Source of the DNA: Candidatus Peregrinibacteria bacterium
Lineage (GTDB): Bacteria > Patescibacteriota > Gracilibacteria > UM-FILTER-43-11
DNA: 64,000 nucleotides
Direction of reading: 5' to 3'
NCBI GenBank assembly: GCA_016932505.1
Contig: JAFGCT010000028.1
Span: forward strand, 2,404 to 66,403
Shown here one piece after another: positions 21,220 to 40,926 of the stretch. The notes beneath the pieces were generated by a model. It worked only from the letters and a program-made list of their open reading frames with translations, did no database searches and was not told the DNA's origin. A program made the position numbers and the translations under genes. Each line of letters begins with the position of its first letter. Position 1 is the stretch's first letter.

Positions 21220-22065
21220 TTATTTCCATCTGGATAAGTCCCTATCGATTAACTTCTCAAGCCTCTCAATGTCTTCTCTGAATATTTTTTTGAAGCCTTT
21301 TCTTGTCTCAGGATTCATTTCAGGATACTTATATGGAACCGTTGTTAATTTCAATAACAACTTTTTTAAACCAATTTTTTTTAAAAATTTAATTAAAAAA
21401 TTTAATCTCAAATCAATAAGTGTCTTTGATAAGAAACGTAATATTTCTATAAAAGATCTATATCTTATTTTTTTTGATGTATTTGACTTCCCTTTTATTA
21501 GGGAATGCGCAATATCAGAATCAACATTTAAAAAATCAAGCAATTCTTTTAATACATTTTTTGGACTGCTTTTAATGTCTTCCAACAGAATAATATGTAT
21601 TTTATCTCCCGAAAAATATCTTAAATAATTCTTTATATAAGTGTAATACATCCCAGATCTTATAAAGCATCCTTCTTTTAATAAATTTTCAAATGTGTCA
21701 TTAGGTTTATATGAATAATATTCTCTAGCCATCCAATATTCAGAGTATGCCCTATCAACCGGATTCCTTAAGCATATTATAATTTTTACTTCAGGAAAAA
21801 ATTTTTTTATCAATCTAGGCGCATCACTGTCATAAAGGTATTTTGTAGAAAATTCACCTTTTATCTGACCTTTTTTGCAATGAATAAAATGTTTTTTATA
21901 CCAAGAAAGCTTCTTCTCTTTATTTTCGTCAAAATACCGTACCTCTTTTGGTTCAGACATACATATGTCAGGATGTTTATCCAGGCAATCAGTTATCCAT
22001 GTAGTAGCAGCCTTAGGCACACCTACACCAATAAAATCCACTTTAAAATCATTCTTACCAGTCAT
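21220..22065 (-). CDS. sulfotransferase family protein
   Basis: 5'-PSB-like GVPKAATTWI and 3'-PB-like RNPVDRAYSEY motifs. Confidence 0.75.
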   Translation of the reverse strand: MTGKNDFKVDFIGVGVPKAATTWITDCLDKHPDICMSEPKEVRYFDENKEKKLSWYKKHFIHCKKGQIKGEFSTKYLYDSDAPRLIKKFFPEVKIIICLRNPVDRAYSEYWMAREYYSYKPNDTFENLLKEGCFIRSGMYYTYIKNYLRYFSGDKIHIILLEDIKSSPKNVLKELLDFLNVDSDIAHSLIKGKSNTSKKIRYRSFIEILRFLSKTLIDLRLNFLIKFLKKIGLKKLLLKLTTVPYKYPEMNPETRKGFKKIFREDIERLEKLIDRDLSRWK

Positions 22066-22067
22066 AA

Positions 22068-22880
22068 TTATTGTTTATGTTTTCTTAGCTTGCGAACCTT
22101 ATTATATAGCATACAATAATAACAAGTTCTAGATATATGCCACGACAAGAACCCTCCTATATCTAGAAATCTAAATCTAAAAATATCAAATAAAATATCT
22201 TTTATAGGAAAGAGTAATAAGGTTATTGGATACTTAAATCTTAAACGAACCCACCTTAATTTATATTCTGGTAATTTATTATAAGTTCGTATTTCATCGG
22301 TTTTTTTAAGAAAAAGCTTTGCGTGAATATCCACCCACTTTTTATGTTTCGATTTAAGTGTCGAAAAAGAAAAATTATTATAGTCAGGCCTATGCCCTAG
22401 CATGTAATCCGTTTCTTTTGTTTTACCAAGTGGTACAAAATTTATATGAGGCATTTCCATAAAACTGATTTTGTTTTTTCTGAACAAAGCTTTTTTTATA
22501 GGCCATTTTGATGTTAAGTACCTTTTACCATTCCACAAAGGCCAGATAAATGAATAACAGTCATATTCTTCTGTTTTTACCATTTCCCTTAAATTGTCTC
22601 TGATTCCTTCAGAAAGGTATTCATCAGCATCTATTTTAAAAATCCAATCTCCTGTGCACTTATTTATGGCGTCTATGTAGTGGTAATCAGATAATCCTTT
22701 TCTTGAACCAACAATTATTTTATCTGTGTATTTCTTTGCAATTTCCAAAGACTCATCCTTGCAAGGACCATCGTGGATTATAATAATTTCATCAACACAG
22801 TCTTTCAAGGACTCAAGGCATCTTTTTATCATCTTTTCCTCATTGTATATTATCAGCATTACGCTAATTGTATTTCTCAT
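22068..22880 (-). CDS. glycosyltransferase family 2 (tandem paralog 1)
   Basis: ISVMLIIYNEE...IIIIHDGPCKD...KIDADEYL. Confidence 0.8.
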   Translation of the reverse strand: MRNTISVMLIIYNEEKMIKRCLESLKDCVDEIIIIHDGPCKDESLEIAKKYTDKIIVGSRKGLSDYHYIDAINKCTGDWIFKIDADEYLSEGIRDNLREMVKTEEYDCYSFIWPLWNGKRYLTSKWPIKKALFRKNKISFMEMPHINFVPLGKTKETDYMLGHRPDYNNFSFSTLKSKHKKWVDIHAKLFLKKTDEIRTYNKLPEYKLRWVRLRFKYPITLLLFPIKDILFDIFRFRFLDIGGFLSWHISRTCYYCMLYNKVRKLRKHKQ

Positions 22881-22886
22881 TCTTTT

Positions 22887-23684
22887 TTATTTGTTTAAAT
22901 GACGTAGTTTTATAAACAAGTGAATACTATAATAAATTTTATATTTGTGATATGCGAAGAAACCTCTAATATCTATAAATTTGAATTTTATCAAATCCAA
23001 GAGAAGGCTTTTAACTGAAAAAAGGACTAATATAATGGGATATTTTTTTCTGATATTGACTGATTTAATTTTAAACTCAGGTGGATTGTTGTATACGCGT
23101 ATTTTACTCTTCATCAAGCTATTTGCGTGTAAATCTATCCACTTTTTATGTTTTTCACTGAAAATACCTATAGAATAATTATTATATTCTGGCTGATGAT
23201 GCAATATGCAATCAGTTGCTTTGATTTTTCCTTTTGATTGAAAGTTCATATGAGGAAGCTCAATAAAGCTGAAAGTGTTTTTTCTGAATAATGCATCTTT
23301 TCTTGGCCACTTCTTTGTTATGTATTTTTCCCCATCCCAAATCGGCCAAATAAATGAATAACAGTCATATATTTCTGAATCAGTCATTATTCTAATGTTT
23401 TCTCTGATTTCTTCTGAAAGATATTCATCGGCATCAATTTTTAGTATCCAGTCACCATTGCACTCATTAAGCCCTTCTATATAATGATAGTCTGCCATGT
23501 ATTTTCTTTCTAATACGAAAATTTTATCGGTATATTCCCTTGCTATCTCAAGTGTTCTATCTGTACATGGTCCATCGTGAATTATTATAATTTCATCCAC
23601 AACATCCTTTAGTGATTCCAAACACCTTCGTATAAGATTTTCTTCATTGTATATAGGCACAAGTGCACTAATTCTTTGTTTCAT
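22887..23684 (-). CDS. glycosyltransferase family 2 (tandem paralog 2)
   Basis: ISALVPIYNEE...IIIIHDGPCTD...KIDADEYL, collinear with the neighbouring gene. Confidence 0.8.
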   Translation of the reverse strand: MKQRISALVPIYNEENLIRRCLESLKDVVDEIIIIHDGPCTDRTLEIAREYTDKIFVLERKYMADYHYIEGLNECNGDWILKIDADEYLSEEIRENIRIMTDSEIYDCYSFIWPIWDGEKYITKKWPRKDALFRKNTFSFIELPHMNFQSKGKIKATDCILHHQPEYNNYSIGIFSEKHKKWIDLHANSLMKSKIRVYNNPPEFKIKSVNIRKKYPIILVLFSVKSLLLDLIKFKFIDIRGFFAYHKYKIYYSIHLFIKLRHLNK

Positions 23685-24771
23685 TAACCATATTAATTAT
23701 ATTTTCCGCTGTCTTTTCCCAACTAAATCTTTTTAAATTCTCATACCCCTTCTTAATAAGATTATCCGAATAAGCTTTATCCTGAAGAATCTTAAGCATT
23801 TTACTAGAAATATCTGTCACTGAATACGGATTTACTATCCCTGCGCCTTCTCCTGCTACCTCTGGACAACTGGTAACATTTGAAGTAAGTACAGGACACC
23901 CGCAAGCTTGTGCCTCCAAAATTGGCAAACCAAACCCTTCGTATAATGATGGATAAACAAATAAATCAGATGATGAGTACATCGCAATAAGTTCATCTTC
24001 CTTTATATGCCCAATCAGTACCACACGACCGATTAAATTTTTATCAATGTAATCCATAATATTTTCATTCCCCCAACTCCTACCCCCCGTTATATAGAAT
24101 TTATGTGGAATTTTATCTTTTATCTCATTAAACCCCTTTAGAGCACGCAGTAAGTTCTTTCTTGGATTGATAGTGCCGCAATAAAAAATATAAGGTGTTT
24201 GTACTTCAAGTTTTTTTAGTAAATTTGGATTAATTGTCTTTTTAAAACTGCCTTCCACACCTTCATATATTACCTTTATTTTTGATTCCGATATCTTTAA
24301 TATTCTGTGAATGTCATTTTTTGTACTCTCTGAAACTGCCAATACCTTTTTTGCTATTTTGCATGATATCTTCATCAGACTTTTCATATATATAGAATCC
24401 CAAAATCTGTAAGCATTTAGTTTTTTTTCAAAATGAGCTAGATCATGGATAATATTTATTTTTTTTGCTGAATTGAAGATAAAAGAAAATGGAATAATGT
24501 TCTTAGGAAATAATAGATAATCCAAATTATACCTTTTGGCTTCCATCGGATACTTGATATAATCCCAGATCAATTTACTTTTGCCTTTTATATATATTTT
24601 TTTTGCGTAGCCAAATTTATCTTTTAATCGCTTATCGTTATAAAAAATATAAAAATCAAAATCTTTTGAATGTTTTTCAAATTCTTTCAGTAAACTAAAA
24701 ATAAACCGGGTTACCCCGCCTTTTGTAAGCCCTCTTAGGCCAATACCTATTTTTAACTTATTTTTTTTCAA
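23668..24771 (-). CDS. glycosyltransferase family 4 (GT-B, group 1)
   Basis: FVYPSLYEGFGLPILEAQACGCPVLTSN. Confidence 0.85.
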   Translation of the reverse strand: MKKNKLKIGIGLRGLTKGGVTRFIFSLLKEFEKHSKDFDFYIFYNDKRLKDKFGYAKKIYIKGKSKLIWDYIKYPMEAKRYNLDYLLFPKNIIPFSFIFNSAKKINIIHDLAHFEKKLNAYRFWDSIYMKSLMKISCKIAKKVLAVSESTKNDIHRILKISESKIKVIYEGVEGSFKKTINPNLLKKLEVQTPYIFYCGTINPRKNLLRALKGFNEIKDKIPHKFYITGGRSWGNENIMDYIDKNLIGRVVLIGHIKEDELIAMYSSSDLFVYPSLYEGFGLPILEAQACGCPVLTSNVTSCPEVAGEGAGIVNPYSVTDISSKMLKILQDKAYSDNLIKKGYENLKRFSWEKTAENIINMVNETKN

Positions 24772-25384
24772 GTAAAAATAAACAATGATATTTATCTAAT
24801 TTAGGCCTAAATTCTTCCAATATTTTAAAATGCCTTTTTATTTTTTTTCTAACGACTTTTGCAGGATGATTTTTACGCCCCATTTCCCAATAATGTTCTC
24901 CTGCAAATTCTATTTTCTTCAATGGAAAAGGCCACTGAAAGAAAAAATAGATGCTTTTAATTATTGGGAAATGAATAATTATTTCACAATAAATAGATGG
25001 ATAAGGAATTGAAATCAATATATGTTTTTTTGAAACTCTATTCAATTCTTTTAATGCTTTATCTAGGTCTTCCCATGGTAAATGCTCAAGTATTTCACAT
25101 GCCATAACAACATCATATGATTCGTCTTTAAATGGTAACTGTCTTATGTCCGCAACATAATCCGGCTCAAGATTTTTATCAAAATCACATGTATCTGTTT
25201 TTATACCAGTCTGTTTTAGATAATTGGAGACGGTTTTATTCCCAATTCCAATCTCAAGAACATTTTTCGGCTTTAATTTTCTTACAAAATCAATCTGGTA
25301 ATAATAAGATATAAACCTTTCAAGATAATCATAGTTTTCATAGTAATGCCCTTTTGGAACCTGAATTTTGAATTTATTATTCAA
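24758..25384 (-). CDS. class I SAM-dependent methyltransferase
   Basis: Motif I VLEIGIGNKTV and YDVVMACEILEHL. Confidence 0.75.
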   Translation of the reverse strand: MNNKFKIQVPKGHYYENYDYLERFISYYYQIDFVRKLKPKNVLEIGIGNKTVSNYLKQTGIKTDTCDFDKNLEPDYVADIRQLPFKDESYDVVMACEILEHLPWEDLDKALKELNRVSKKHILISIPYPSIYCEIIIHFPIIKSIYFFFQWPFPLKKIEFAGEHYWEMGRKNHPAKVVRKKIKRHFKILEEFRPKLDKYHCLFLLEKK

Positions 25385-25394
25385 TTTTTTGTAG

Positions 25395-26564
25395 TTATGA
25401 AATAGCTTTTAATAACTCTAGACTATTTTTTTTGATGTCATGTGTTTCCCTTACATAATTATAAGCGTTTTCGGACATCTCTTCATATAATTTATTGTCT
25501 TTAATTAGCTCTCTAAGATATTCACCTAATAGCTCTTCTTTATTATAGCAACAAAAACCACATTTCTTATCTTTTAATATATTGCCGTAATCCAGCGTAT
25601 AAGAAATTATTGGCAATTTATGAGCCATCGCCTCCAATACTGTCATAGGCCAGTCGCCTTCTTTTAATGAAGTAATACAAAAAACCTTGGAATTTCTTAA
25701 ATATTCATAAACTTCCTCATTTGATACAAAATCACAGAAATCTAGATTAGATATCTGTTCAGCTTCATTTTTTATTTTCTCAAAACTACTATTTCCGGCA
25801 TTACTTGTGCATACCATTGCAAAATTTAGACTTGGATTGCCTTTTGCCATTTCTAAAAATATTTCTCCTTTTTTCCACACTTCACATCTGCCAACCCAAA
25901 TTGCATCCCATTTTTTCTTTATTGTAGAATGTTGTATACTTTGAAAATCAATACCTTTTTTAACAATAACTAATTTGTTTTTAGGTAAATATGTTTTTAG
26001 GTTATGATATTGATTTATGTTTTGACATACAACTAATTGAAAGTATTTACTTGTAATTTTAAAAATAAGCTTAGAAATTTGATACCTAATATCAGCCTTT
26101 TTAAATAAACAAGCCTTAGCGACTCTTATAAAAATTTCAGTGCCAAGTCTATTGAGATTCTCTGCCTCATCGTCATGAGCAAGCATAAAAATGAATTTCT
26201 TCTTTTTAAGCCTGCAATATAAGGTAATAAAAAAAGATAATGAAGATAATATACCTATCCCCCTTGTAATATATGCATCTGCATCAATTTTTTTAATTAC
26301 ACTAAAAAGAATAAGATTTTTTTTAATAAAACCAGTGTTCACTCTGTATGCCTTCCATACATTTACTAAATCATATTTCTCAACTTTATTTTGTCCGTGA
26401 TCATATACCACGAAATGTACATCTAAATCTTTTTTTTTAGCTAATATCTTAGCTAATAAGCTGAGTTGTACTTCCGCACCACCAAATGGAAATTTATTTT
26501 TTTTATTAAATAGTGGATAAGCCCCTGGTAATATAAAACAAATTTTCAAATTATTTTTTTTCAA
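25395..26564 (-). CDS. GT-B glycosyltransferase (GT4-like)
   Basis: C-terminal FCITSLKEGDWPMTVLEAMAHKLPIISY resembles the E(x7)E region. Confidence 0.6.
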   Translation of the reverse strand: MKKNNLKICFILPGAYPLFNKKNKFPFGGAEVQLSLLAKILAKKKDLDVHFVVYDHGQNKVEKYDLVNVWKAYRVNTGFIKKNLILFSVIKKIDADAYITRGIGILSSLSFFITLYCRLKKKKFIFMLAHDDEAENLNRLGTEIFIRVAKACLFKKADIRYQISKLIFKITSKYFQLVVCQNINQYHNLKTYLPKNKLVIVKKGIDFQSIQHSTIKKKWDAIWVGRCEVWKKGEIFLEMAKGNPSLNFAMVCTSNAGNSSFEKIKNEAEQISNLDFCDFVSNEEVYEYLRNSKVFCITSLKEGDWPMTVLEAMAHKLPIISYTLDYGNILKDKKCGFCCYNKEELLGEYLRELIKDNKLYEEMSENAYNYVRETHDIKKNSLELLKAIS

Positions 26565-26638
26565 AATATTCTGAAATCATAATATCAAAGGAGCTACTTA
26601 GTACAAGCAATTAAAATATTATTTTTACCTAAAGCCCC

Positions 26639-26667
26639 TTGAATTCATAAAATAAAAAATATATGAT
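26639..26667 (+). promoter_or_regulatory. sigma70-like promoter candidate
   Basis: ttgaat, a 17-nt spacer, then tatgat, about 30 nt upstream of the ATG at 26697. Confidence 0.4.
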
Positions 26668-26696
26668 TATTGTACATTTATAAAGAATAATAAAGC

Positions 26697-27614
26697 ATGA
26701 CAATTAATAAAATATTAGTAACTGGTAGTAGTGGTACTATTGGTACTCATTTATGCAATAATCTATTAAGAAAAGGTTATGATGTTGTTGGAGTAGACTG
26801 GAAACCAAATGAATGGAGTAAGGAAGTTGACAGGCTTACAATCAACATTGATTTAAGGAATAAAGACGATGTTTTAAGTAAATTACCCAAGGATGTTGAT
26901 TTAGTGATTCATTTTGCTGCAAATCCGAGAGTATATAATTCTGTTGTTGACCCATCTATTGCTCGAGATAATTTTGAAACCCTATTCAATACCCTTGAAT
27001 ATGCACGGCAGAATAATGTTAAAAGATTTATGTTCTCTTCATCTAGAGAAGCCTATGGCAATTCAGATAAAATTATTCATAATGAGGATGAAGCTTATGT
27101 AAAAAACGCCGAGAGCCCTTATACTGCGACAAAAATTGCTGGAGAAGCCATTGTTCATTCGTATCAGCAATGTTACAATATGGACTTTGTTATTTTTAGA
27201 TTTTCAAATGTATATGGAATGTATGACGGTAGCGATAGATTGATTCCGCTTTTTATTAAACAATGCAAAGAGGGTGAAGATATGACTGTATTCGGCGATG
27301 AAAAACTATTGGACTTTACTTATATTGATGACACTGTAAACGGAGTAATGCTTTCTATTGAAAAATTCAATGAAGTAAAGAATGAAGTATTTAATATATC
27401 CTGTGGCAAAGGTTCAACAATTCTGGAAGTAGCTGAAATGACTAAAAAATTAATGAATTCAAATAATAATATTATTCTTAAAGAGAACAGAACTGGTGAA
27501 GTGGTTAAATTTATTGCTGACATAACTAAAGCAAAAGAGAAATTGGGCTACAACCCGCAAACTAGTATTGAGGATGGTTTAAAAAAATCCATCGAATGGT
27601 ATAGTTTATCTTAA
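26697..27614 (+). CDS. NAD-dependent epimerase/dehydratase (extended SDR), tandem paralog 1
   Basis: VTGSSGTIGTHL, SSSREAYG, YTATK. Confidence 0.85.
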   Translation: MTINKILVTGSSGTIGTHLCNNLLRKGYDVVGVDWKPNEWSKEVDRLTINIDLRNKDDVLSKLPKDVDLVIHFAANPRVYNSVVDPSIARDNFETLFNTLEYARQNNVKRFMFSSSREAYGNSDKIIHNEDEAYVKNAESPYTATKIAGEAIVHSYQQCYNMDFVIFRFSNVYGMYDGSDRLIPLFIKQCKEGEDMTVFGDEKLLDFTYIDDTVNGVMLSIEKFNEVKNEVFNISCGKGSTILEVAEMTKKLMNSNNNIILKENRTGEVVKFIADITKAKEKLGYNPQTSIEDGLKKSIEWYSLS

Positions 27615-27617
27615 TTG

Positions 27618-28535
27618 ATGTATATAAAAAAAATATTAGTAACAGGTAGTAGTGGTACCATAGGAACACGTTTGTGCGAAATTCTTTTGCAAAAAGGATA
27701 TACGGTAATTGGTACGGATATTAAGCCTAATAAATGGTATAAGGGAGTAGATGCAATAACGACAATTGTTGATTTAATGAACAAGAGTGAAACACTGAAT
27801 AATCTTCCTGGGGATATTGATATGGTTATTCACCTTGCTGCAATTGCCAGAGCTGTTGATTTAAGCAAAAATCAGTCAATCGCAAATAATAATGTATTAA
27901 CCACATCAAATATTCTTGAATATGCAAAACTCAATAATATAAATAAGTTTATATTTGCATCATCAAGAGAGGTCTATGGAGGTTTTAATAAATCAATTGA
28001 AAGTGAGAACGAATTATCTACCACAAGTCGTGATAACCCTTATGCTTCATCTAAAATTGATGGTGAATTGCTTGTTAAAGATTTTCAAAAAAATTGTGGT
28101 ATAGATTATGTAATACTACGATTTTCAAATACATATGGAATGTATGATACTACTGACAGGTTAATCCCCCGTTTCATAGAACTATGTAAGGAATGTAAGG
28201 ATTTACCTGTTTTTGGTCAGGACAAAATACTGGATTTTACATATATTGACGATATTATCAACGGAATAATTCTAAGTATTGAAAAATTTGATTCAGTAAA
28301 AAATGATACCTTTAATCTATCAAGCGGAAAAGGCTGTTCAATTTTCCATGTAGCTGAAATTATTAAATCTAATTTTAATTCTGACAATCAAATTGTAATC
28401 GAAGAAAACAAAAGAGGAGATGTACTCAAATTTGTTGCAGATATAACAAAGGCAAAAGAAAATCTAGGATACACCCCCCAAACTTCAATTGAAAACGGCA
28501 TAAAAAAAGCTATTGAGTGGTATAAGAAAATTTAA
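27618..28535 (+). CDS. NAD-dependent epimerase/dehydratase (extended SDR), tandem paralog 2
   Basis: VTGSSGTIGTRL, ASSREVYG, YASSK. The ATG at 27618 lies 3 nt after the upstream stop. Confidence 0.85.
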   Translation: MYIKKILVTGSSGTIGTRLCEILLQKGYTVIGTDIKPNKWYKGVDAITTIVDLMNKSETLNNLPGDIDMVIHLAAIARAVDLSKNQSIANNNVLTTSNILEYAKLNNINKFIFASSREVYGGFNKSIESENELSTTSRDNPYASSKIDGELLVKDFQKNCGIDYVILRFSNTYGMYDTTDRLIPRFIELCKECKDLPVFGQDKILDFTYIDDIINGIILSIEKFDSVKNDTFNLSSGKGCSIFHVAEIIKSNFNSDNQIVIEENKRGDVLKFVADITKAKENLGYTPQTSIENGIKKAIEWYKKI

Positions 28536-28623
28536 TCCAATCAACCTAGTTAAACTGCACAGTCTTTCTCAACTCGATTTAAATAACTTTAAATAAGATT
28601 TTTATTATTGGACATCACAATAA

Positions 28624-29259
28624 TTAAAAGTCATATTTAAATAATTCAATATCTTTTTTATAATATTTATCTACTAGCTTCTTAGCTTCCTGAGAATATA
28701 AATTTTTATATTCGGAATGTATTGTTTTGTTCATATGTGGTAAATTCTTAGCTTTAATGCCAATTATTTTACAAATTCTATTAAAATCATTCTGCAAATT
28801 TTCAAATCTGCCAACAAAATCTACTAATAAACTACCATCTTCTGAATATGCGAATGGATGCTGGTAATACCCCTCGTTATCGTCTGACTGATCAAAGATT
28901 TTCAACATATACCAAATCGCATCCACGTGGACATCCTCAAACTTAAGTGTTTTGTTAATTAAGTATTTATAATTATAACAAAATTGTGAATATACCCAAT
29001 CCCAAGGATTTCTAACAAATGTAAATTTAAAATACTCATCCCATATTTCCTTATCTACATACTTTTTTACAAAAGAGGGTCTTACATGCTTTAAATGATA
29101 TGGTTTACTATTTTGTTTTCTTAATAGCTCCAATTCCTTTTCAATATTTTCCACAATAAACTTATCGTCATGATATTTTTTTAGTATTTTTTCAATTGAA
29201 GTAGTACCTGTTTTACCACATGCAAAGAAAATAAATTTTTTTTTGTGAGATATAATCAT
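28624..29259 (-). CDS. sulfotransferase family 2-like protein
   Basis: KKFIFFACGKTGTTSI N-terminal PAPS-binding-like loop. Size and context fit. ATG at 29259 preferred over the TTG at 29268. Confidence 0.65.
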   Translation of the reverse strand: MIISHKKKFIFFACGKTGTTSIEKILKKYHDDKFIVENIEKELELLRKQNSKPYHLKHVRPSFVKKYVDKEIWDEYFKFTFVRNPWDWVYSQFCYNYKYLINKTLKFEDVHVDAIWYMLKIFDQSDDNEGYYQHPFAYSEDGSLLVDFVGRFENLQNDFNRICKIIGIKAKNLPHMNKTIHSEYKNLYSQEAKKLVDKYYKKDIELFKYDF

Positions 29260-29275
29260 AGTAAGCAATTTATTA

Positions 29276-29800: not shown

Positions 29801-29822
29801 CTTAATCTTTTTTATCATATTC

Positions 29823-30626: not shown

Positions 30627-30628
30627 AT

Positions 30629-30829
30629 TCACTTCTTTGCGTATATTATAAAACCACAAGGATTATTTGTTTTTTCACTGGTTATACGTGCAATTATTGG
30701 ATTAAAAATATTAAAAATCATCTTTAATATTCCATTACTTGTTACAAAAATGTGCCATATAGACTGAAGTGTATTTCCATGATGGTATATCTCAGTTTTT
30801 TTCTCATATACATTTATTTTTTCTGTCAT
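30629..30829 (-). CDS. small hypothetical ORF (66 aa)
   Basis: Tightly packed between two glycosyltransferase genes (2-3 nt gaps). No recognisable motif. Confidence 0.3.
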   Translation of the reverse strand: MTEKINVYEKKTEIYHHGNTLQSIWHIFVTSNGILKMIFNIFNPIIARITSEKTNNPCGFIIYAKK

Positions 30830-30832
30830 CTA

Positions 30833-31939: not shown

Positions 31940-32779
31940 CTACTTATTTAATATTATTTTCAGTTCACCAATATCAATGTCCTTCTTATTATTATACTTT
32001 TCATTCAATTTAATATTTTTAAGACTGTATTTAACTGTTTTTTCTGATGAGGTTTTAATACCGCTATTTCTGAAAGCTTCTTTAAAATCATCATAACGCC
32101 ATCTGTTTGTATAGGAGGCACCTTCTTTTGTTAGATATTTATCCCATGTGCTATCGGAGTATTTGTAGAACAAAAAAGGATTATTGAAATTAAAATGGTC
32201 GCGCATATCGATACTATGATACATATGACCGCCTTCTTTAAGTATTTCCGACATTTTCCTGATGTTCTCTTCAATCGATTTAATATGCTCAAGAACACTT
32301 ATGGAATATATAAAATCAACTTGCAGGTTTTTTACCTCTGTTAAATCCTGACTTATAAATTCAATATATCCAGGCTTCAGCTTAAAACCCTCGAAAAAGA
32401 AGAAATCTGCCCCACTGTTTTTTTCTCTAATAAATCTGATTTCATCTTCTGCGTACTTCTTTTGCTTAGCAGTTTTTAGACTCCTTGGAAATTTATCAAC
32501 TAGTATAACTTTTTTTGCTCCAAGCAGAAGAAAGTTATAGGCATTAATGTTTGAATTTCCAGGACCAAGTTCCAATACCACTTTTCCCATTAAGTCGATG
32601 TTATTTTCCTTTAACACCTCATTCATTTCCTGAAACTTTCTATCGAGCTTATTATAATCACTTGAATACAGCTTCCAGAACATCAGTTTTCTTAATAATC
32701 CTGCTCTGCAGTATATAAAACGGATAGGCGCATCCAACAAATTATACAGAAATGAAATGTATTTATTATTAATCCTCAC
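31940..32779 (-). CDS. class I SAM-dependent methyltransferase
   Basis: VVLELGPGNSN and FIYSISVLEHI. GTG start, so the start position is uncertain. Confidence 0.7.
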   Translation of the reverse strand: MRINNKYISFLYNLLDAPIRFIYCRAGLLRKLMFWKLYSSDYNKLDRKFQEMNEVLKENNIDLMGKVVLELGPGNSNINAYNFLLLGAKKVILVDKFPRSLKTAKQKKYAEDEIRFIREKNSGADFFFFEGFKLKPGYIEFISQDLTEVKNLQVDFIYSISVLEHIKSIEENIRKMSEILKEGGHMYHSIDMRDHFNFNNPFLFYKYSDSTWDKYLTKEGASYTNRWRYDDFKEAFRNSGIKTSSEKTVKYSLKNIKLNEKYNNKKDIDIGELKIILNK

Positions 32780-32976
32780 AATTAAACAAAAAATTATGTG
32801 TTTATTACTTCTTTATTTTTGATATTTTCAACAAGTTTAATATTATTTTCTGAATTGATAACTTTGTTAAATACTGATTAACATACAAGTACTTTACCAC
32901 TTTTTGTTCAATTTTTTTAATTGTATTTTCAATTCAAAAAATTCAATACCAGTATTTTAGTTCTATACCTGTAATC

Positions 32977-34821
32977 TTAATAATTGTTGCAATCTCTTTT
33001 TGAGATATAATCATTTTCAATCAGATAATCCATTACCTTTTGCAATGATTCATCTTTCGTTTCTTCATGTGTTTTTAGCTCTATATTCGGATTAATCGGC
33101 GGTTCGTAAGGGTCGGAAATGCCTGTAAATTCCTTAATTTCTCCATTTCTGGCTCGTTTATATAAACCTTTTACATCCCGTTTTTCACAAACTTCCAATG
33201 ATGTATTTACATAAATTTCTATAAAATTCTCCGTTTCGGATTTTAGCCTATCCCTTTGCTCACGATATGGGGAAATAAATGACCCAATGGTTATTATTCC
33301 ATGTTTGGATAGTGTTTTAGCCAAAAAACCAGCACGTTCAATATTTTTATAACGGTCATCTTTGGAAAACCCAAGATCTTTACATATAGACCCCCTTAAA
33401 ACATCGCCATCAAGCTTTTCACATTTAATATCATTCTTTTTAAATAAATCATATAATTTATCCGCAATAGTGCTTTTTCCAGATCCAGATAAACCAGTAA
33501 ACCATAATACGGCACCTTTTTTTGATCTCAGACTTGAATTCTTTATGTCGGCATCTGATGTTTTCTTTTTATCAACAATAATACCAGCACCTATTGTATT
33601 ATTTGTGAATTCATCAATTATAATAAAACTGCCTGTACTTCGATTCTGTGAGTAATTATCTATTGATAATAGTTCTGAAGTTTTTACATTAACCCTGCCT
33701 ATCTCATTAAAACCAAGCGTATCGGCACCTTCTCTGTGCAAGCTGTCAATGTCCATTCTATAACTTACATTATTTATGTAACATCGAGTTGATTTAGTTG
33801 TATGTTTAATTATATAGCTTCTGTCTTTTTCAAGAGGCTCATCTGAAAACCAGGAAATCATGGCTTCAAAATCGTTTGTAACTTCCGTTCTGTTGTTTTC
33901 TCTTACAATCATATCCCCGCGACTAACATCCACTTCATCCTCTAAAGAAATAACAACGGACTCTGGATTGAACGCATAATCGCATTCTTTTTGATTTTTG
34001 ATAATTGTTTTAATTGTAGTTTTTTGCCCAGACGGCAAAATTATTACCTTTTCACCTTTTTTAATTATCCCACCTTCAACTGTGCCTGCATAACCTCTAA
34101 AATCCTGATTCGGACGAATAACATACTGAACTGGGAAACGAAAATCTATTAAGTTTCTATCTATAGATACCTGCAAATTTTCTAAATATCCAAGAGTTGT
34201 ATCTCCCGTATACCAATTCATGTTCTTACTCCTCTCCACAACATTATCACCCTTAAGAGCAGAGACGGGTATGAATTGAAGATCTTTTAAATTTAGCTTC
34301 GCCGCATACTCACTGCATTCCTCTTTTATCTTATTGTAAACATTCTGATCGTAATCAACTGAATCCATTTTATTAACAATAATTACAACATGGGGTATTT
34401 CGAGCAATGTTGCTATAAACAAATGTCTTTTGGTTTGAGTTAAAAGCCCCTTTCTTGCATCTATCAGAATCATTGCCAAATTTGCATTAGATGCGCCTGT
34501 TACCATGTTTTTTGTATATTGCTCGTGACCTGGCACATCCATAACTATAAAGCGTCTTTTCGGTGTAGAAAAATATCTGTAAGCAACATCAATAGTAATC
34601 CCCTGTTCTCTTTCGGATGTAAGTCCATCTAAAAGTAATGCCAAATCTGCCTCATCACCCCCCTTCTTATTGGCTTTTTCAATTGCAGAAAATTGGTCTT
34701 CATATATTGCATTGCAACCAAATAAAATCTGACCAATCAGAGTTGATTTGCCATCATCAACACTGCCGGCTGTAGCCATTCTAAGAAGATCTGTGCTTTT
34801 ACTTATTGTAATTGTATTCAT
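32977..34821 (-). CDS. cysNC: bifunctional sulfate adenylyltransferase subunit 1 / adenylylsulfate (APS) kinase
   Basis: GTPase G1 GSVDDGKST and DVPGHEQY. C-terminal APS-kinase P-loop FTGLSGSGKSTIA. Confidence 0.9.
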   Translation of the reverse strand: MNTITISKSTDLLRMATAGSVDDGKSTLIGQILFGCNAIYEDQFSAIEKANKKGGDEADLALLLDGLTSEREQGITIDVAYRYFSTPKRRFIVMDVPGHEQYTKNMVTGASNANLAMILIDARKGLLTQTKRHLFIATLLEIPHVVIIVNKMDSVDYDQNVYNKIKEECSEYAAKLNLKDLQFIPVSALKGDNVVERSKNMNWYTGDTTLGYLENLQVSIDRNLIDFRFPVQYVIRPNQDFRGYAGTVEGGIIKKGEKVIILPSGQKTTIKTIIKNQKECDYAFNPESVVISLEDEVDVSRGDMIVRENNRTEVTNDFEAMISWFSDEPLEKDRSYIIKHTTKSTRCYINNVSYRMDIDSLHREGADTLGFNEIGRVNVKTSELLSIDNYSQNRSTGSFIIIDEFTNNTIGAGIIVDKKKTSDADIKNSSLRSKKGAVLWFTGLSGSGKSTIADKLYDLFKKNDIKCEKLDGDVLRGSICKDLGFSKDDRYKNIERAGFLAKTLSKHGIITIGSFISPYREQRDRLKSETENFIEIYVNTSLEVCEKRDVKGLYKRARNGEIKEFTGISDPYEPPINPNIELKTHEETKDESLQKVMDYLIENDYISKRDCNNY

Positions 34822-34824
34822 ATT

Positions 34825-35730
34825 TTAAAAGTAACCTTCTTTTTTCTTCTCTTCCATAGATGCTTCCGAGCCTTGATCGATAGCCCTTGTTTGCCTTTCT
34901 GACTTTTTAGCCAATAAAACTTCACTGATAATATCATCAAGACAAACTGCATTAGATGGAATAGCTCCTGTTGATGGTGAACAACCAAGTGTTCTGTATC
35001 TGCACATAATCTTTTCAACCTGATCCTCTTTTTTTGGCTGTGTAAACCTATCAATTCTTAAATAAACACCGTTCCTCTTAACTACATCACGTTCCTTTGC
35101 ATAATAAAGTGGCACTATCTCGATATTTTCACGCTGTATATACATCCAAATGTCTGCTTCTGTCCAATTGGAAAGAGGAAAAACACGCATAGTATGCCCC
35201 TCCGATAATCTTGTATTATAAAGATGCCACAACTCAGGACGTTGGTTTTTTGGATCCCAAACGGAAGTTTCATTTCTTACGGAAAATATTCTTTCTTTTG
35301 CACGGGATTTTTCTTCGTCTCTTCTTGCGCCCCCAAAGGCTGAATCAAAACCATGCATCTTAATTGCTTCCAACAATGGCTTTGTTTTTTTAAGGTAAAT
35401 GTAGTTATCTGTATGTGATTCTTCCGGACCTAATGACAATGCTCTTTGTTCTGTGTTTTTATGCACGATTAATTTTGCTCCGATTTTATTTGTGTAATAA
35501 TCGCGAAATTCAATCATTTCATCAAACTTAAACCCTGTATCGATATGAAGCAATGGGAAAGGAATTTTCCCCGGATAAAATGCTTTTTCTGCTAATTTCA
35601 ACATTACTGATGAATCTTTTCCGACAGAATAAAGAAAAACTGGATTCTTAAATGTAGCTGCGGCTTCACGAAAAATATGGATACTCTCCGCCTCAAGTTG
35701 TGATAAGTGATCTAAATTATATTTATTCAT
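34825..35730 (-). CDS. cysD: sulfate adenylyltransferase subunit 2
   Basis: LSQLEAESIHIFRE...YSVGKDSSVML...GGARRDEEKSRAKERIFS. Confidence 0.9.
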   Translation of the reverse strand: MNKYNLDHLSQLEAESIHIFREAAATFKNPVFLYSVGKDSSVMLKLAEKAFYPGKIPFPLLHIDTGFKFDEMIEFRDYYTNKIGAKLIVHKNTEQRALSLGPEESHTDNYIYLKKTKPLLEAIKMHGFDSAFGGARRDEEKSRAKERIFSVRNETSVWDPKNQRPELWHLYNTRLSEGHTMRVFPLSNWTEADIWMYIQRENIEIVPLYYAKERDVVKRNGVYLRIDRFTQPKKEDQVEKIMCRYRTLGCSPSTGAIPSNAVCLDDIISEVLLAKKSERQTRAIDQGSEASMEEKKKEGYF

Positions 35731-35733
35731 AAC

Positions 35734-36516
35734 CTACTCGGAAAATTCATTTATTACAGTAGAATGTAGTATACCATTTGTAGCCACAAGCCCAAATGGG
35801 TTTTTTATGTTTTCCTGATTATAAATAATCACTTCACCATGAATACCCGTAACTATACCCCCAGCCTCCTCTACTATAATCTGAGGTGCACAGCAATCCC
35901 ATTGCCCAAAGCGATTTGTTGGATTAAAGAACAAGTCAGCCTTTCCTTCTGCTACAAGACCCATCTTCACACCATTACTTCCACATTTAACCATTTCACC
36001 GATGTTCAGATGCCTTGCTACATCTTCAATTGCACGGCTTAAATGATTACGACTAACAATTAGCTTTGATTTTGTAATATCAGATTCGTCGGACACATGT
36101 ATTTTTTTTGGTTCGCTATCTCCCACCTGAACAAATGAACCTTTTCCTTTTTCGGCAAAATAGAGCTTATCCTGTACTGGTAAATATACCAACCCAAGAA
36201 TAGCATGACCCTTTTCTGACAACCCTATCATAATGCAGAATTCATCGGTTTTATCCAAAAAATCCTGTGTACCATCCAGCGAATCAACTATCCATACTTT
36301 TTCGGAGCGCATACGGCTTAAATCATCTTGTGATTCTTCGGAAAGAATCGGAAAACCAAAGGATTTTAAGCCTTCAATAATTATTTTATCGGAAAGAATA
36401 TCGGCTTCTGTAACAGGAGATTTATCTTCTTTTTTAAAGACTTCATAATCTTTATTATAAAGACTGAGTATCTCTTTCCCGGCCTTCTTGATTAGTGGAA
36501 TGACTTGAGTGAGCAT
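35734..36516 (-). CDS. cysQ: 3'(2'),5'-bisphosphate nucleotidase (inositol monophosphatase family)
   Basis: LSEES..., WIVDSLDGTQDF and GSNGVKMGLVAEGKADLF motifs. Adjacent to cysD and cysNC. Confidence 0.8.
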   Translation of the reverse strand: MLTQVIPLIKKAGKEILSLYNKDYEVFKKEDKSPVTEADILSDKIIIEGLKSFGFPILSEESQDDLSRMRSEKVWIVDSLDGTQDFLDKTDEFCIMIGLSEKGHAILGLVYLPVQDKLYFAEKGKGSFVQVGDSEPKKIHVSDESDITKSKLIVSRNHLSRAIEDVARHLNIGEMVKCGSNGVKMGLVAEGKADLFFNPTNRFGQWDCCAPQIIVEEAGGIVTGIHGEVIIYNQENIKNPFGLVATNGILHSTVINEFSE

Positions 36517-37537
36517 GGGTTTCTTTTGATGGGCTAATTGATGGGCTTATTGATGGACTTATTGATGTTACTTTCAATTGCCCTTCAATTGCCCTTCCAT
36601 CAGCCCCTCCATTAGTTATTACCTCCTTAATAATATAAACTTTATCTTTAGAACTGTTATAATAAGTTTTACTAATCATATCCGCAAGAATTCCCCCTAT
36701 GAACATAGCGAAACCTGCAAAGAACAAGAACATGGTAAGAACTGTAAAAGAGGTGTCAGATAAATCTATTTTACCAAAAATTTTCAAATACAAAGCCCAC
36801 ATTCCACTTGCCACACCTATAAACATCATTAGTATTCCTGCTGTACCAAGTAAATGAAGTGGACGATTTGCGAATTTTTTCCAAAACCAAACAGAAATCA
36901 TATCCAAAAAACCTTTTATTATACGGCTTGCGTTATATTTTGTCTTTCCATGAATTCTTGGATGATGAGTTACTTCTAACTCACCTGTTTTAAAACCTTT
37001 CATCTTTAAAATCGCAACAATAAAGCGATGCATTTCTCCAAATAAATCCACGGTATCAAAACATTCACGTCGATATGCTTTTAATGTACATCCTGAGTCA
37101 TGAATATCATCTTTTATAAGAATATCTCTTAAAAACTTAGCACGCTTTGAAACAAATCGTTTTAAAAAGGGGTCCTTTCTATCTTTTCTCCAACCTGAAA
37201 CTACGTCTAAATCATCCGCTTTCATTTTTACAAGTAGACGAGGGATGTCAGATGGGTCGTTCTGAAGATCTCCATCCATTGTTACGATAATCTTACCGAC
37301 GGATGCTTTAATTCCGGCATCCATTGCAGCTGTTTGACCGCAGTTTTTTCTAAAGCGAATTATTTTAACTGGATTTAATGTCTTTAATTGTTCAAGAGTT
37401 CCATCGTCCGAACCATCATCCACAAAAATAATCTCAAATGGCCTGTTGAACTGTTTACATACATCTAAAATACGCCTGTGAAGCTCTGCCACATTATCTT
37501 TTTCGTTGTAAACTGGGATTACTATTGAAAGATCCAT
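36455..37537 (-). CDS. polyprenyl-phosphate glycosyltransferase (GT2, GtrB/ArnC/DPM1-like) with repeat-encoded C-terminal extension
   Basis: LSIVIPVYNEKDNV...IIFVDDGSDDGT...DGDLQNDP, then two C-terminal TM helices. The last ~47 codons run through a 12-mer repeat array and overlap the cysQ start by 62 nt. Confidence 0.8.
   Translation of the reverse strand: MDLSIVIPVYNEKDNVAELHRRILDVCKQFNRPFEIIFVDDGSDDGTLEQLKTLNPVKIIRFRKNCGQTAAMDAGIKASVGKIIVTMDGDLQNDPSDIPRLLVKMKADDLDVVSGWRKDRKDPFLKRFVSKRAKFLRDILIKDDIHDSGCTLKAYRRECFDTVDLFGEMHRFIVAILKMKGFKTGELEVTHHPRIHGKTKYNASRIIKGFLDMISVWFWKKFANRPLHLLGTAGILMMFIGVASGMWALYLKIFGKIDLSDTSFTVLTMFLFFAGFAMFIGGILADMISKTYYNSSKDKVYIIKEVITNGGADGRAIEGQLKVTSISPSISPSISPSKETHAHSSHSTNQEGRERDTQSL
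36517..36612. repeat. 11-12-mer arrays (ttgatgggctaa-type x4, tcaattgccct x2) lying inside the GT2 ORF tail
   Basis: Read directly from the sequence. Translated on the minus strand they give SISPSISPSISPS. Confidence 0.85.
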
Positions 37538-38907: not shown

Positions 38908-38920
38908 TATAAATTGAGTT

Positions 38921-39056: not shown

Positions 39057-39100
39057 GATGTTTTCGTAGTTAGTTTACTATTATTTTTTGAAAAAGCAAT

Positions 39101-39322: not shown

Positions 39323-39344
39323 ACCAAAACAAATAAAAAATAAT

Positions 39345-40916: not shown

Positions 40917-40926
40917 ATTAAATTAT

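Follow-up and report, generated by a model that had tools for sequence, protein, structure and literature searches.

A PAPS-supply unit and two sulfotransferases lie within a surface-glycan island of a Peregrinibacteria-like CPR bacterium and probably serve glycan sulfation

Enterobacteria assimilate sulfate with the genes cysD, cysN, cysC and cysQ. The locus studied here raises the question of what the same genes do in a tiny-genome CPR bacterium (Patescibacteria) that keeps its PAPS-making genes inside a surface-sugar island, together with two sulfotransferases. The answer matters because cysN/cysC-type genes of CPR bacteria are usually reported as "sulfate reduction" (PMC7906910, PMC10221324). 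Our analysis of a whole 64-kb stretch of DNA (the window) makes it quite likely that, in this Peregrinibacteria-like bacterium, PAPS is made so that a methylated, lipid-linked surface glycan can be sulfated in the cytoplasm, as judged from gene content and structure models. The sulfate-activation genes of this group would then probably serve cell-surface decoration rather than sulfur nutrition.

The envelope glycan island occupies 12.8-45.7 kb of the window, between two SLH-domain surface proteins (Table 1). The left one has three C-terminal SLH repeats and one N-terminal hydrophobic segment, the right one has Big_6 and three SLH repeats, and the two are 55% identical across the SLH region. 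A sequence-only reading had placed cysD, a fused cysN-cysC, cysQ, glycosyltransferases, methyltransferases and two sulfotransferases in one minus-strand run. Pfam and NCBIfam recovered each of these genes in its place on the minus strand, but the run is broken by a plus-strand SDR pair. The GT4, GT32 and GT2 enzymes it had listed are likewise present, though not singly, as three GT4, three GT2 and one GT32 genes lie between 21 and 38 kb, plus two methyltransferases.

Table 1. Features of the envelope glycan island (window coordinates)
Feature	Coordinates	Strand	Evidence
SLH-domain surface protein, left island border	12790..14232	-	Pfam SLH 155.7 bits
Two multi-pass membrane proteins, family unknown	14359..16402	-	hydropathy count
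Two GT-C type (PMT/PMT_2) membrane glycosyltransferases	16609..19930	+	Pfam
Wzx-type polysaccharide flippase	19945..21210	+	Polysacc_synt 48.3 bits; Polysacc_synt_3
ST1, soluble PAPS-dependent sulfotransferase	21220..22065	-	PF00685 Sulfotransfer_1 77.7 bits; PF13469 Sulfotransfer_3 48.9 bits
GT2	22068-22880	-	Pfam
GT2	22887-23684	-	Pfam
GT4	23668-24771	-	Pfam
SAM methyltransferase	24758-25384	-	Pfam
GT4	25395-26564	-	Pfam
Two tandem SDR nucleotide-sugar epimerase/dehydratase paralogues	26697..28535	+	Epimerase 176 and 159 bits
ST2, compact 211-aa soluble family 2 sulfotransferase	28624..29259	-	PF03567 Sulfotransfer_2 52.5 bits
GT32-type Gly_transf_sug glycosyltransferase	29823-30659 (or 29823-30626)	-	Pfam
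GT4	30833-31939	-	Pfam
Second SAM methyltransferase	31940-32779 (31940-32683 by gene call)	-	Pfam
CysN-CysC fusion (ATP sulfurylase GTPase subunit + APS kinase)	32977..34821	-	NF004035 812.6 bits, cutoff 715
CysD, ATP sulfurylase small subunit	34825..35730	-	NF003587 448.6 bits, cutoff 195; TIGR02039 443 bits, above cutoff
CysQ-like 3'(2'),5'-bisphosphate nucleotidase	35734..36516	-	Inositol_P 165 bits
GT2 polyprenyl-phosphate glycosyltransferase (ArnC/PgfS/GtrB-like)	36455-37537	-	Glycos_transf_2 117.7 bits
SAM-cycle module: MetK, AdoHcy hydrolase, PfkB kinase	37756..41930	-	Pfam
SDR epimerase/dehydratase + UDP-glucose 6-dehydrogenase (uronic-acid precursor supply)	42029..44370	-	Pfam
SLH-domain surface protein, right island border	44468..45709	-	SLH 154.6 bits, Big_6 36 bits

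The PAPS unit comprises cysD, the fused cysN-cysC and a cysQ-like phosphatase gene (32977-36516, minus strand), and its cysDNC copy is probably the only one in the genome. All CysNC motifs are intact (GSVDDGKST, DVPGH, NKMD, GLSGSGKS and DGD), and the named top homologues of the protein come nearly all from CPR bacteria. CysD retains the PP-loop SVGKDS. The CysQ-like protein has the DSLDGT and WDCCA motifs, and its best NCBIfam model (TIGR01331, 192 bits) falls below the cutoff of 228.8; among the 12 distinct CPR-labelled loci that span at least 15 kb, 8 have an orthologue next to cysD/cysNC. CysD and the CysN domain would convert sulfate, ATP and GTP to APS, which the fused CysC domain would phosphorylate to PAPS. 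The CysQ-like phosphatase would hydrolyse PAP, the sulfotransferase-inhibiting by-product.

The candidate consumers of this PAPS are ST1 and ST2. As had been proposed, they belong to two distinct families: HMM classification assigned ST1 to PF00685/PF13469 and ST2 to PF03567. The two are mutually unrelated, and both score above the curated Pfam cutoffs and keep PAPS-binding motifs. By its sequence and predicted fold, ST1 is of the heparan-sulfate 3-OST/NDST-like carbohydrate type. It matched 3rnl and HS 3-OSTs in a phmmer search against the PDB, and its AlphaFold2 model (pLDDT 92.2) matched PAPS-/PAP-bound carbohydrate sulfotransferases in Foldseek (E 6e-15 to 1e-10, TM ~0.7). Its motifs include GVPKAATTW and LRNPVDRAYS, and the invariant E41 aligns to the 'aEphffd' segment of 3-OST. 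ST2 covers model positions 3-252 of 252 in PF03567; in a 41-sequence alignment, R83-N84-P85-W86-D87 is invariant and K16, S21 and S91 are conserved in at least 90%. The fold match, strong for ST1, is weak for ST2 (pLDDT 95; best E 5.6e-3, TM 0.48), and all of its top 31 Foldseek matches are PAPS-dependent sulfotransferase-fold enzymes. Neither enzyme has a TM or signal segment by hydropathy, and these soluble, signal-less proteins would transfer the sulfate of PAPS in the cytoplasm.

In bacteria, the acceptors of Sulfotransfer_1/3 enzymes also include lipids (Mycobacterium), polyketides and peptides (RaxST). Since substrates are not readable from sequence and the ST2 fold match is generic, the sulfate might go to lipids, small metabolites or protein tyrosines instead of the island glycan. 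We consider this unlikely. The nearest solved relatives of ST1 are carbohydrate sulfotransferases, the PF03567 family consists largely of such enzymes, and both genes are interleaved with glycosyltransferase, methyltransferase, Wzx and nucleotide-sugar genes in an island that has no PKS/NRPS or lipid-synthesis genes. The likely substrate of ST1 and ST2 is a polyprenol-linked oligosaccharide.

Could the unit instead perform ordinary assimilatory activation, feeding a PAPS-reductase route to cysteine as in E. coli, with the glycan cluster as a chance neighbour? Its genes are those of enterobacterial assimilation, the CPR literature names them accordingly, and in one Magasanikbacteria locus a 222-aa second PAPS_reduct (cysH-like) gene lies directly upstream of cysD, with no sulfotransferase nearby. 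However, a Pfam scan of the larger ORFs of the 64-kb window (every ORF of at least 145 aa, except one antisense within another ORF) found no PAPS reductase, cysI/J, sir or cysK, in line with the sequence-only reading. A CysD-derived HMM, run on every stop-to-stop ORF that reached 100 aa, matched only cysD in the window. The PF01507 match was cysD itself, for which CysH models gave 67 bits, short of the cutoff of 154. Most of the related loci examined also have no cysH or sulfite reductase. Furthermore, amino-acid biosynthesis is reported as mostly absent from Peribacteria genomes (PMC4736985), and the PAPS genes are lodged among glycosyltransferases and sulfotransferases, a linkage conserved in several CPR lineages. 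Judged from these 64 kb of the genome and the related loci, an assimilatory use appears very unlikely.

The arrangement is more than chance: other, independent CPR loci carry the same combination, and CPR cysNC loci have it more often than non-CPR ones. A sulfotransferase lies within 10 kb of cysNC in 8/12 CPR-labelled versus 24/92 non-CPR loci (Fisher p = 0.007; only loci of at least 15 kb, with CPR labels taken from record titles, some of them unreliable), and 10/10 spot-checked HMM matches behind this count were confirmed by Pfam. The closest cysNC relative (68% identical) is accompanied by cysD, Inositol_P, Sulfotransfer_1, Sulfotransfer_3, GT2/GT4 and Wzm/Wzt. A widespread Peregrinibacteria locus combines cysD-cysNC with Inositol_P, Sulfotransfer_1 and Sulfotransfer_2, and a Magasanikbacteria MAG has seven sulfotransferases alongside cysQ-cysC-cysD, PMT_2 and Wzx. 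The order in a Patescibacteria single-cell genome (L255) is Epi-AhcY-PfkB...GT2-CysD-CysNC-CysQ-GT4-ST-GT4-...-MT-MT-GT4-ST2. The PAPS-plus-sulfotransferase core thus recurs across relatives. The earlier view of a sulfated and methylated envelope glycan as unusual for a reduced-genome bacterium holds for the literature searched, where the CPR arrangement is apparently unreported, but not for genomes, where it is common (the same 8/12 loci). The earlier proposal that PAPS acts as sulfuryl donor for glycan sulfation, not assimilation, is supported by each of its proposed tests that were run.

The rest of the island suggests how such a glycan may be assembled. The GT4, GT2 and GT32 enzymes would build the oligosaccharide from nucleotide sugars modified by the SDR enzymes and UDP-glucose 6-dehydrogenase (TIGR03026 471.7 bits, above cutoff; TuaD-like 564 bits), and the two SAM methyltransferases would O-methylate it. 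The tandem GT2 paralogues (22068-23684) are 57% identical to each other, as are the plus-strand SDR paralogues, for which no NCBIfam equivalog scored above cutoff. Wzx (~9 TM by hydropathy), whose 375-bit homologue adjoins sulfotransferases in locus L007, would flip the completed unit across the membrane. The polyprenyl-phosphate GT2 has two TM segments, with C-terminal TM helices, and its ArnC-like (164.9 bits) and PgfS-like (147.8 bits) scores are both below the equivalog cutoffs; homologues of 370-390 bits adjoin PAPS genes in L188/L255, L201 (Spirochaetaceae-labelled) and L007. This enzyme would provide the GT-C pair with lipid-linked sugar, and the pair would use polyprenyl-phosphate-linked sugars as donors outside the membrane, so that all three enzymes may attach sugars, or transfer them, on the outer side. 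The first GT-C gene (16609-18102) scores above cutoff for PMT (31.6 bits) and PMT_2 (30 bits), and the second (18086-19930) reaches 23.9 bits for PMT_2, below the cutoff of 26.1. In L006 and L007, too, PMT_2 genes have Wzx and sulfotransferases as neighbours. The search of the 64-kb window turned up neither an initiating phosphoglycosyltransferase nor a Wzy polymerase, and likewise no chain-length regulator, LCP ligase, O-oligosaccharyltransferase or sulfate transporter. The two multi-pass proteins (509 aa with at least 7 TM and 173 aa with ~6 TM, by hydropathy), which have no Pfam/NCBIfam match and no homologue in any fetched locus, are candidates for a polymerase, ligase or flippase accessory role. 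The most likely envelope destination is an S-layer/surface glycoprotein glycan or a wall-associated polymer.

The base composition of the island could point to a decaying or recently imported mosaic, in which the sulfotransferases no longer function in the present host. The GC content is 0.27-0.32 at 14.3-32.8 kb against a backbone of 0.36-0.42, and ST2 has the lowest value of the island genes (0.265), adjoins a gene-poor gap of 563 bp and has its nearest homologues in non-CPR contexts. ST2 was probably acquired horizontally. Nevertheless, every ORF is full length with intact motifs, surface-polysaccharide loci typically have low GC, and the PAPS genes are CPR-type sequences with backbone-like GC (0.34-0.37). 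The identical contig was also independently assembled from a sequencing run (Logan contig L001), and independent gene calls on it agree with the starts at 29259 and 37537. A non-functional mosaic is thus highly improbable. The assignment of the host follows from FtsH, which is 77% identical to that of a Peregrinibacteria MAG, and from the CysNC top homologues, nearly all of the named ones being CPR.

PAPS genes with sulfotransferases inside a surface-sugar island are known from other bacteria as well, and the proposed sulfation of the CPR glycan can be compared with several systems. Rhizobial NodP/NodQ are CysD/CysN-CysC paralogues that, with NodH or NoeE sulfotransferases, sulfate Nod factor, a decoration of a secreted/surface glycan used in partner interaction. 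There, as proposed for the CPR island, a dedicated CysD and fused CysN-CysC supply PAPS for a carbohydrate sulfotransferase. In contrast, rhizobia sulfate a lipo-chitooligosaccharide signal instead of an envelope glycan, and their system is plasmid-borne, duplicates housekeeping cysDN and lacks a setting of methyltransferase, Wzx or GT-C genes.

An experimentally characterised precedent is the CPS locus of Vibrio sp. KMM 8419, which carries second cysD/cysN/cysC copies and three sulfotransferases; its authors regard such a pairing of PAPS genes and sulfotransferases within a polysaccharide cluster as the hallmark of a pathway to sulfated polysaccharide (PMC11641403). Both clusters unite PAPS genes and several sulfotransferases with glycosyltransferases, an exporter and genes for nucleotide sugars. 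The Vibrio host is a free-living Gram-negative that also assimilates sulfate, so its cluster PAPS genes are second copies, whereas the CPR host has a reduced genome. Export is via a Kps ABC transporter in Vibrio and would be via Wzx and GT-C enzymes here; cysQ is unmentioned for the Vibrio cluster, whereas the CPR island includes cysQ and has cysN-cysC fused.

Halobacterium salinarum also uses two different sulfotransferases, Agl30 and Agl31, for the N-linked tetrasaccharide of its S-layer glycoprotein (PMC11980604). Each modifies a different sugar of a lipid-linked glycan bound for S-layer/surface glycoproteins, and uronic acid precursors are involved, as UGDH suggests for the CPR island. That system, however, is archaeal and dolichol-linked, with AglB and one membrane-bound sulfotransferase; the two CPR enzymes are both soluble, no oligosaccharyltransferase was recognised, and only position connects the island with the SLH proteins. 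Mycobacterium tuberculosis has a CysD-CysNC sulfate-activating complex with Stf sulfotransferases and CysQ (PMC4373884, PMC3141025). It shares the CysN-CysC fusion with the CPR island, and its CysQ PAP phosphatase supports envelope-glycolipid sulfation. The mycobacterial complex also feeds APS reductase for assimilation; the sulfotransferases are not similarly clustered with glycan-assembly genes, and the product is a trehalose sulfolipid. The cyanobacterial synechan (Xss) locus is likewise a Wzx/Wzy-type cluster with embedded sulfotransferases, making a sulfated extracellular glycan, and according to the discussion of that report (PMC13125312) its PAPS is drawn from the general sulfur metabolism of the cell. 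Xss has a polymerase, dedicated regulators and OPX/PCP components for export, and none of these was found in the CPR window.

For SAM/SAH, MetK, AhcY and the PfkB kinase, a candidate adenosine kinase, would play a role equivalent to that of the CysQ-like phosphatase, supplying both methyltransferases with their methyl donor and recycling it. Though co-located, this module is probably housekeeping. A SAM-riboswitch-like leader (38955-39057) scores 30.4 bits with RF00162, below the gathering score. An AhcY-PfkB pair adjoining the PAPS/sulfotransferase cassette is also conserved in the single-cell genome L255.

The minus-strand genes from position 37537 downward encode, according to the ORF listing and HMM scans, a polyprenyl-phosphate GT2, a CysQ-like phosphatase, CysD, a CysN-CysC fusion (CysNC), a SAM methyltransferase, a GT4, a GT32-type glycosyltransferase, and the sulfotransferase ST2 (211 aa). 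Two plus-strand SDR epimerase/dehydratase paralogues follow, and then, down to 21220, a GT4, a methyltransferase, a GT4, two tandem GT2 paralogues, and the second sulfotransferase, ST1 (281 aa). All the genes named by the sequence-only reading were thus recovered, and its coordinates agree with independent gene calls on the identical contig from run SRR13394437. The genes it had placed in a single minus-strand run are present, but the run is broken by the two plus-strand SDR genes. Similarly, the GT4, GT32, and GT2 families that it listed are there, but GT4 and GT2 have three genes apiece instead of one. These genes belong to a wider envelope island having an SLH-domain surface protein at each border (55% identical across the SLH region). 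The stretch upstream of ST1 encodes a flippase of the Wzx type, a pair of membrane glycosyltransferases of the PMT/PMT_2 (GT-C) group, and two multi-pass membrane proteins (hyp509 and hyp173). Past the polyprenyl-phosphate GT2, at higher coordinates, come the genes for MetK (with a SAM-I riboswitch-like leader), AdoHcy hydrolase, a kinase of the PfkB family, an SDR enzyme, and UDP-glucose 6-dehydrogenase. Promoter and terminator signals between 20.5 and 40.4 kb showed no excess over shuffles; therefore, operon boundaries could not be drawn. In a gene-poor gap beside ST2, a 45-aa ORF considered as a GT4 remnant was rejected, as its BLAST match to the island GT4s was not significant (E 2.8).

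Features of the envelope island and of the flanking regions
Feature	Position	Strand	Remark
Large orphan proteins and TrwB/HerA-like ATPase	275-7552		
Wider envelope island	12.8-45.7 kb		SLH-domain protein at each border
Candidate variable glycan region	14300-32800		low GC
hyp509 and hyp173	14359-16402	-	multi-pass membrane proteins
Wzx-type flippase	19945-21210		upstream of ST1
ST1	21220-22065	-	281 aa
GT2a and GT2b	22068-23684	-	tandem duplication, 57% identity
Two SDR epimerase/dehydratase genes	26697-28535	+	tandem duplication, 57% identity
ST2	28624-29259	-	211 aa
Long gene-poor gap beside ST2	29260-29822		ORFs of at most 45 aa only
Rejected 45-aa ORF	29589-29726		
cysNC	32977-34821	-	CysN-CysC fusion
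cysD	34825-35730	-	
CysQ-like gene	35734-36516	-	
metK, ahcY, and PfkB kinase gene	37756-41930	-	adjoin the methyltransferase-rich island
SAM-I riboswitch-like element	38955-39057	-	directly upstream of metK
Long gene-poor gap, ahcY to metK	38962-39635		two small ORFs (89 and 79 aa) and the riboswitch-like element
Cys-rich secreted protein	62404-63390	+	C-terminal membrane anchor

In the Candidate Phyla Radiation (CPR, Patescibacteria), cysN, cysC, and sat have been described as sulfate-reduction capacity (PMC7906910, PMC10221324). The PAPS genes of the window are well preserved: CysD scores 448.6 bits against NF003587 (cutoff 195) and has the PP-loop SVGKDS, and the CysN-CysC fusion scores 812.6 bits against NF004035 (cutoff 715), with its GTPase and APS-kinase motifs intact (GSVDDGKST, DVPGH, NKMD, GLSGSGKS, and DGD). 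It is unlikely that they serve assimilation, as both an APS/PAPS reductase (CysH) and a sulfite reductase are absent from the 64-kb window. CysD is the sole protein of the PAPS_reduct superfamily (PF01507) there, the CysH models fail (67 bits versus a cutoff of 154), and no scanned ORF matched the sulfite reductase families. The sequence-only reading, which had seen neither reductase in the window, therefore holds on this point. The phosphatase keeps the IMPase metal-binding motifs DSLDGT and WDCCA and falls under the CysQ equivalog cutoffs (192 bits versus 228.8 for TIGR01331; 142 versus 379 for PRK10931), so we refer to it as a CysQ-like IMPase-family phosphatase. Of the 12 distinct CPR-labelled loci that span 15 kb or more, 8 have an orthologue above 300 bits adjoining cysD/cysNC; L006, a locus with PMT_2 beside Wzx and sulfotransferases, has one too.

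The HMM classification proposed by the sequence-only reading placed both sulfotransferases in known families. ST1 lies above the cutoffs of PF00685 (77.7 bits; cutoff 22) and PF13469 (48.9 bits; cutoff 27) and carries GVPKAATTW as the 5'-phosphosulfate loop and LRNPVDRAYS as the 3'-phosphate motif. An alignment of 41 homologues shows no variation at G15, E41, R100, and P102 and almost none at T21, R105, and S108. In the match to heparan-sulfate (HS) 3-OST-3, E41 pairs with the Glu of the 'aEphffd' segment, which marks it as the putative catalytic base. Sequence matches in the PDB were the bacterial sulfotransferase 3rnl and heparan-sulfate 3-O- and N-sulfotransferases. Correspondingly, the AlphaFold2 model (pLDDT 92.2, pTM 0.88) is predicted to adopt the sulfotransferase fold, its best 21 Foldseek matches being 3rnl, HS 3-OST-1/3/5, and NDST1 (E 6e-15 to 9e-9, TM 0.64-0.72). 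ST1 is thus a predicted PAPS-dependent sulfotransferase of the Sulfotransfer_1/3 type.

ST2 scores 52.5 bits with PF03567 (cutoff 22) in a match that extends from position 3 to position 252 of the 252-position model, and it keeps the PAPS-binding motifs GKTGTTS and FVRNPWDW..S. All 41 aligned homologues share R83, N84, P85, W86, D87, and H58, and each of K16, S21, and S91 occurs in at least 90% of them. A phmmer search of the PDB gave no match, and Foldseek with the ST2 model (pLDDT 95) gave weak ones (best E 5.6e-3, TM 0.48; none at E <= 0.001), so the assignment draws on Pfam and the motifs; the best 31 matches, all weak, are PAPS-dependent sulfotransferase-fold enzymes. Neither ST1 nor ST2 has a signal or a TM segment, which fits action in the cytoplasm, the site of PAPS synthesis.

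The sequence-only reading had called the host a reduced-genome bacterium. This is fair wording in view of FtsH, which is 77% identical to that of a Candidatus Peregrinibacteria MAG with other Patescibacteria as the next matches; of CysN-CysC, whose named relatives at 53-60% identity are nearly all CPR (Peregrinibacteria, Magasanik-, Andersen-, Nomura-, and Falkowbacteria, and 'Patescibacteria group'); and of the content of the window, where numerous orphan proteins and a surface protein rich in Cys are typical of CPR. Base composition divides the island. Genes for glycosyltransferases, methyltransferases, sulfotransferases, Wzx, and GT-C enzymes at 14.3-32.8 kb have a GC of 0.27-0.32, with ST2 the lowest (0.265), whereas the PAPS genes, at 0.34-0.37, are close to the backbone value of 0.36-0.42. 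This difference suggests that a stable PAPS core adjoins a glycan region that is variable and in part imported. Furthermore, the nearest homologues of ST2 lie in non-CPR contexts, Bacteroidota-like in two of three; together with its very low GC, this suggests that ST2 was acquired horizontally into that variable region.

A partly imported cluster might be a non-functional mosaic, which we consider unlikely. When the island was compared across relatives, as the sequence-only reading had proposed, PAPS genes and sulfotransferases were again found linked at independent loci. The CysNC closest to that of the window (68% identity) is accompanied by CysD, an Inositol_P phosphatase, Sulfotransfer_1, Sulfotransfer_3, GT2/GT4, and a Wzm/Wzt exporter, and Peregrinibacteria CysNC (34 indexed blocks, 24 contigs read) by CysD, Inositol_P, Sulfotransfer_1, and Sulfotransfer_2. 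Seven sulfotransferases occur in a Magasanikbacteria MAG together with CysQ, CysC, CysD, PMT_2, and Wzx; in a Patescibacteria MAG, a pyruvyl transferase adjoins CysD-CysNC, a sulfotransferase, and TauE; and in one further locus a Sat-CysC fusion lies directly upstream of an ST1 homologue. Specifically, L255, a locus from a single-cell Patescibacteria genome and hence free of binning artefacts, reads Epi-AhcY-PfkB ... Epi-GT2-CysD-CysNC-CysQ-GT4-ST-GT4-AsnB-MT-MT-GT4-ST2-MT, which is near the window's own order.

To count this linkage, HMMs built from the ST1 and ST2 homologue alignments were iterated across all fetched loci (10 of 10 matches checked were confirmed by Pfam), and loci of at least 15 kb with a sulfotransferase within 10 kb of cysNC were scored. 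A generic cysNC alignment scan of genome contigs gave, among the matches listed (at least 600), non-CPR bacteria only, at 43-51% identity, and these were kept as the control set. The CPR-type CysNC clade was reached with the clade-specific segment DVPGHEQY / RNLIDFR[FL]P; the clade was rejected as CPR-specific, since Spirochaetes, Lentisphaerae, Planctomycetes, and others also fall inside it. A sulfotransferase was found in 8/12 CPR-labelled cysNC loci, 9/32 non-CPR loci of the same clade, and 15/60 generic controls. The linkage is therefore commoner in CPR-labelled loci than in all others (Fisher p = 0.007), a comparison of few loci in which taxon labels are record titles, some apparently unreliable, and sulfotransferase families beyond the two HMMs are missed.

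Two observations from these loci concern other enzymes. A Magasanikbacteria MAG (L254, 8388-9056, the same contig as L172) carries a 222-aa second PAPS_reduct-family (cysH-like) gene directly upstream of cysD-cysNC, within a NeuB/nonulosonic-acid sugar cluster and with no sulfotransferase nearby. This one exception may mean that some CPR put activated sulfate to another use, whether assimilatory or not. Polysaccharide pyruvyl transferases (CsaB-like) lie beside sulfotransferases in two related loci (L002, 5610-6668, and L007, 8188-9513), and in Firmicutes a CsaB-like enzyme makes the wall ligand of SLH domains. No pyruvyl transferase was found in the window, though two SLH proteins are present.

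PAPS-fed sulfation of a polyprenol-linked, methylated glycan is the best-supported mechanism for the island. CysD and CysN-CysC would produce PAPS; soluble glycosyltransferases would assemble an oligosaccharide on polyprenol from SDR/UGDH-modified nucleotide sugars; the two methyltransferases would methylate it, and ST1 and ST2 would sulfate two of its positions. The CysQ-like enzyme would remove PAP, and MetK/AhcY/PfkB would recycle the methyl donor. Wzx would then flip the unit to the other side of the membrane, where the polyprenyl-phosphate GT2 and the GT-C enzymes may work on the outer face. An acceptor other than a glycan, in an island so rich in glycosyltransferase genes, is unlikely. 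An SLH or S-layer glycoprotein is one candidate for the final carrier, as are a wall polymer and a capsule; the position of the SLH proteins is only suggestive of a tie to the island glycan.

Some components of such pathways were not matched in the window. An initiating phosphoglycosyltransferase and a polymerase/ligase, as looked for in a sulfated-polysaccharide cluster, were not found, the scanned ORFs having no Bac_transf, Glycos_transf_4, Wzy, LCP, or Wzy_C match. The multi-pass proteins hyp509 and hyp173, which belong to no Pfam or NCBIfam family and have no homologue among the fetched loci, could be candidates for an initiating-transferase, polymerase, or ligase role. The polyprenyl-phosphate GT2 (two TM segments) is ArnC-like at 165 bits and PgfS-like at 148 bits, both under the equivalog cutoffs; one PMT-family protein lies above the Pfam cutoff and the second below it. 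A search for a three-component extracytoplasmic glycosylation system identified no GtrA-type small flippase.

Systems of this kind have precedents. In rhizobia, Nod-factor sulfation is served by dedicated CysD/CysNC paralogues. The Halobacterium S-layer N-glycan is decorated by two sulfotransferases (PMC11980604). In Vibrio sp. KMM 8419, PAPS genes and sulfotransferases within a polysaccharide cluster are taken as the hallmark of sulfated polysaccharide synthesis (PMC11641403); the island is of the same kind, as it shows this hallmark together with a Wzx gene. The searched literature on CPR PAPS genes calls them sulfate-reduction genes or only mentions PAPS synthase, and we found in it no report tying them to sulfotransferases or sulfated glycans. 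Thus, the novelty lies in the lineage and in what it implies, the kind of system being known already. The annotation habit for CPR cysN/cysC/sat is corrected here: in the window and in most related loci, these genes are tied to sulfotransferases inside glycan clusters and therefore say little on sulfur cycling and more on the cell surface.

CPR bacteria live attached to the cells of their hosts, and envelope structures take a large share of their resources. It is conceivable, though we hold it rather doubtful, that surface-glycan sulfation is CPR-wide, such that most cysD/cysN/cysC/sat/cysQ genes surveyed as 'sulfate reduction or assimilation' are a dedicated PAPS supply for sulfated, methylated envelope glycans mediating episymbiont-host contact. 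Alternatively, the sulfated glycans could be an anionic wall ligand of SLH-anchored proteins, replacing pyruvylated wall polymers or acting beside them. A negatively charged, sulfated, methylated surface glycan is a testable candidate for attachment, phage evasion, or S-layer anchoring. Besides, the compact cassette (cysD-cysNC-cysQ and small soluble carbohydrate sulfotransferases) is a possible source of parts for engineered polysaccharide sulfation.

The genes for MetK, AdoHcy hydrolase, and the PfkB kinase (a possible adenosine kinase) adjoin the island, and the AhcY-PfkB pair also adjoins the PAPS/sulfotransferase cassette in L255 (803-3012). The arrangement suggests that each of the two group donors, SAM and PAPS, has a recycling module located nearby. 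The riboswitch-like element before metK scores 30.4 bits against RF00162, under the gathering score of 44.4; it retains the conserved cores AUCAAGAG, GCAACC, and AAGGUGC, with a P4 of reduced length (7 nt). The true start of metK is probably the second Met, at ~38907.

Outside the island, the secreted Cys-rich protein carries CGNGxC...CP.DC repeats, has no Pfam match, and resembles the cysteine-rich extracellular proteins reported for Peribacteria (PMC4736985). Its gene lies in a patch of GC 0.53-0.60 (genome ~0.36). A structured RNA in this patch (62.5-63.4 kb) was rejected, as Rfam and tandem-repeat searches were empty and the Cys-rich protein is encoded there. At the other end of the window, two orphan proteins of considerable size (569 and 756 aa), for which Pfam gave no match, stand beside an 852-aa TrwB/HerA-like ATPase, which resembles type IV secretion coupling proteins.
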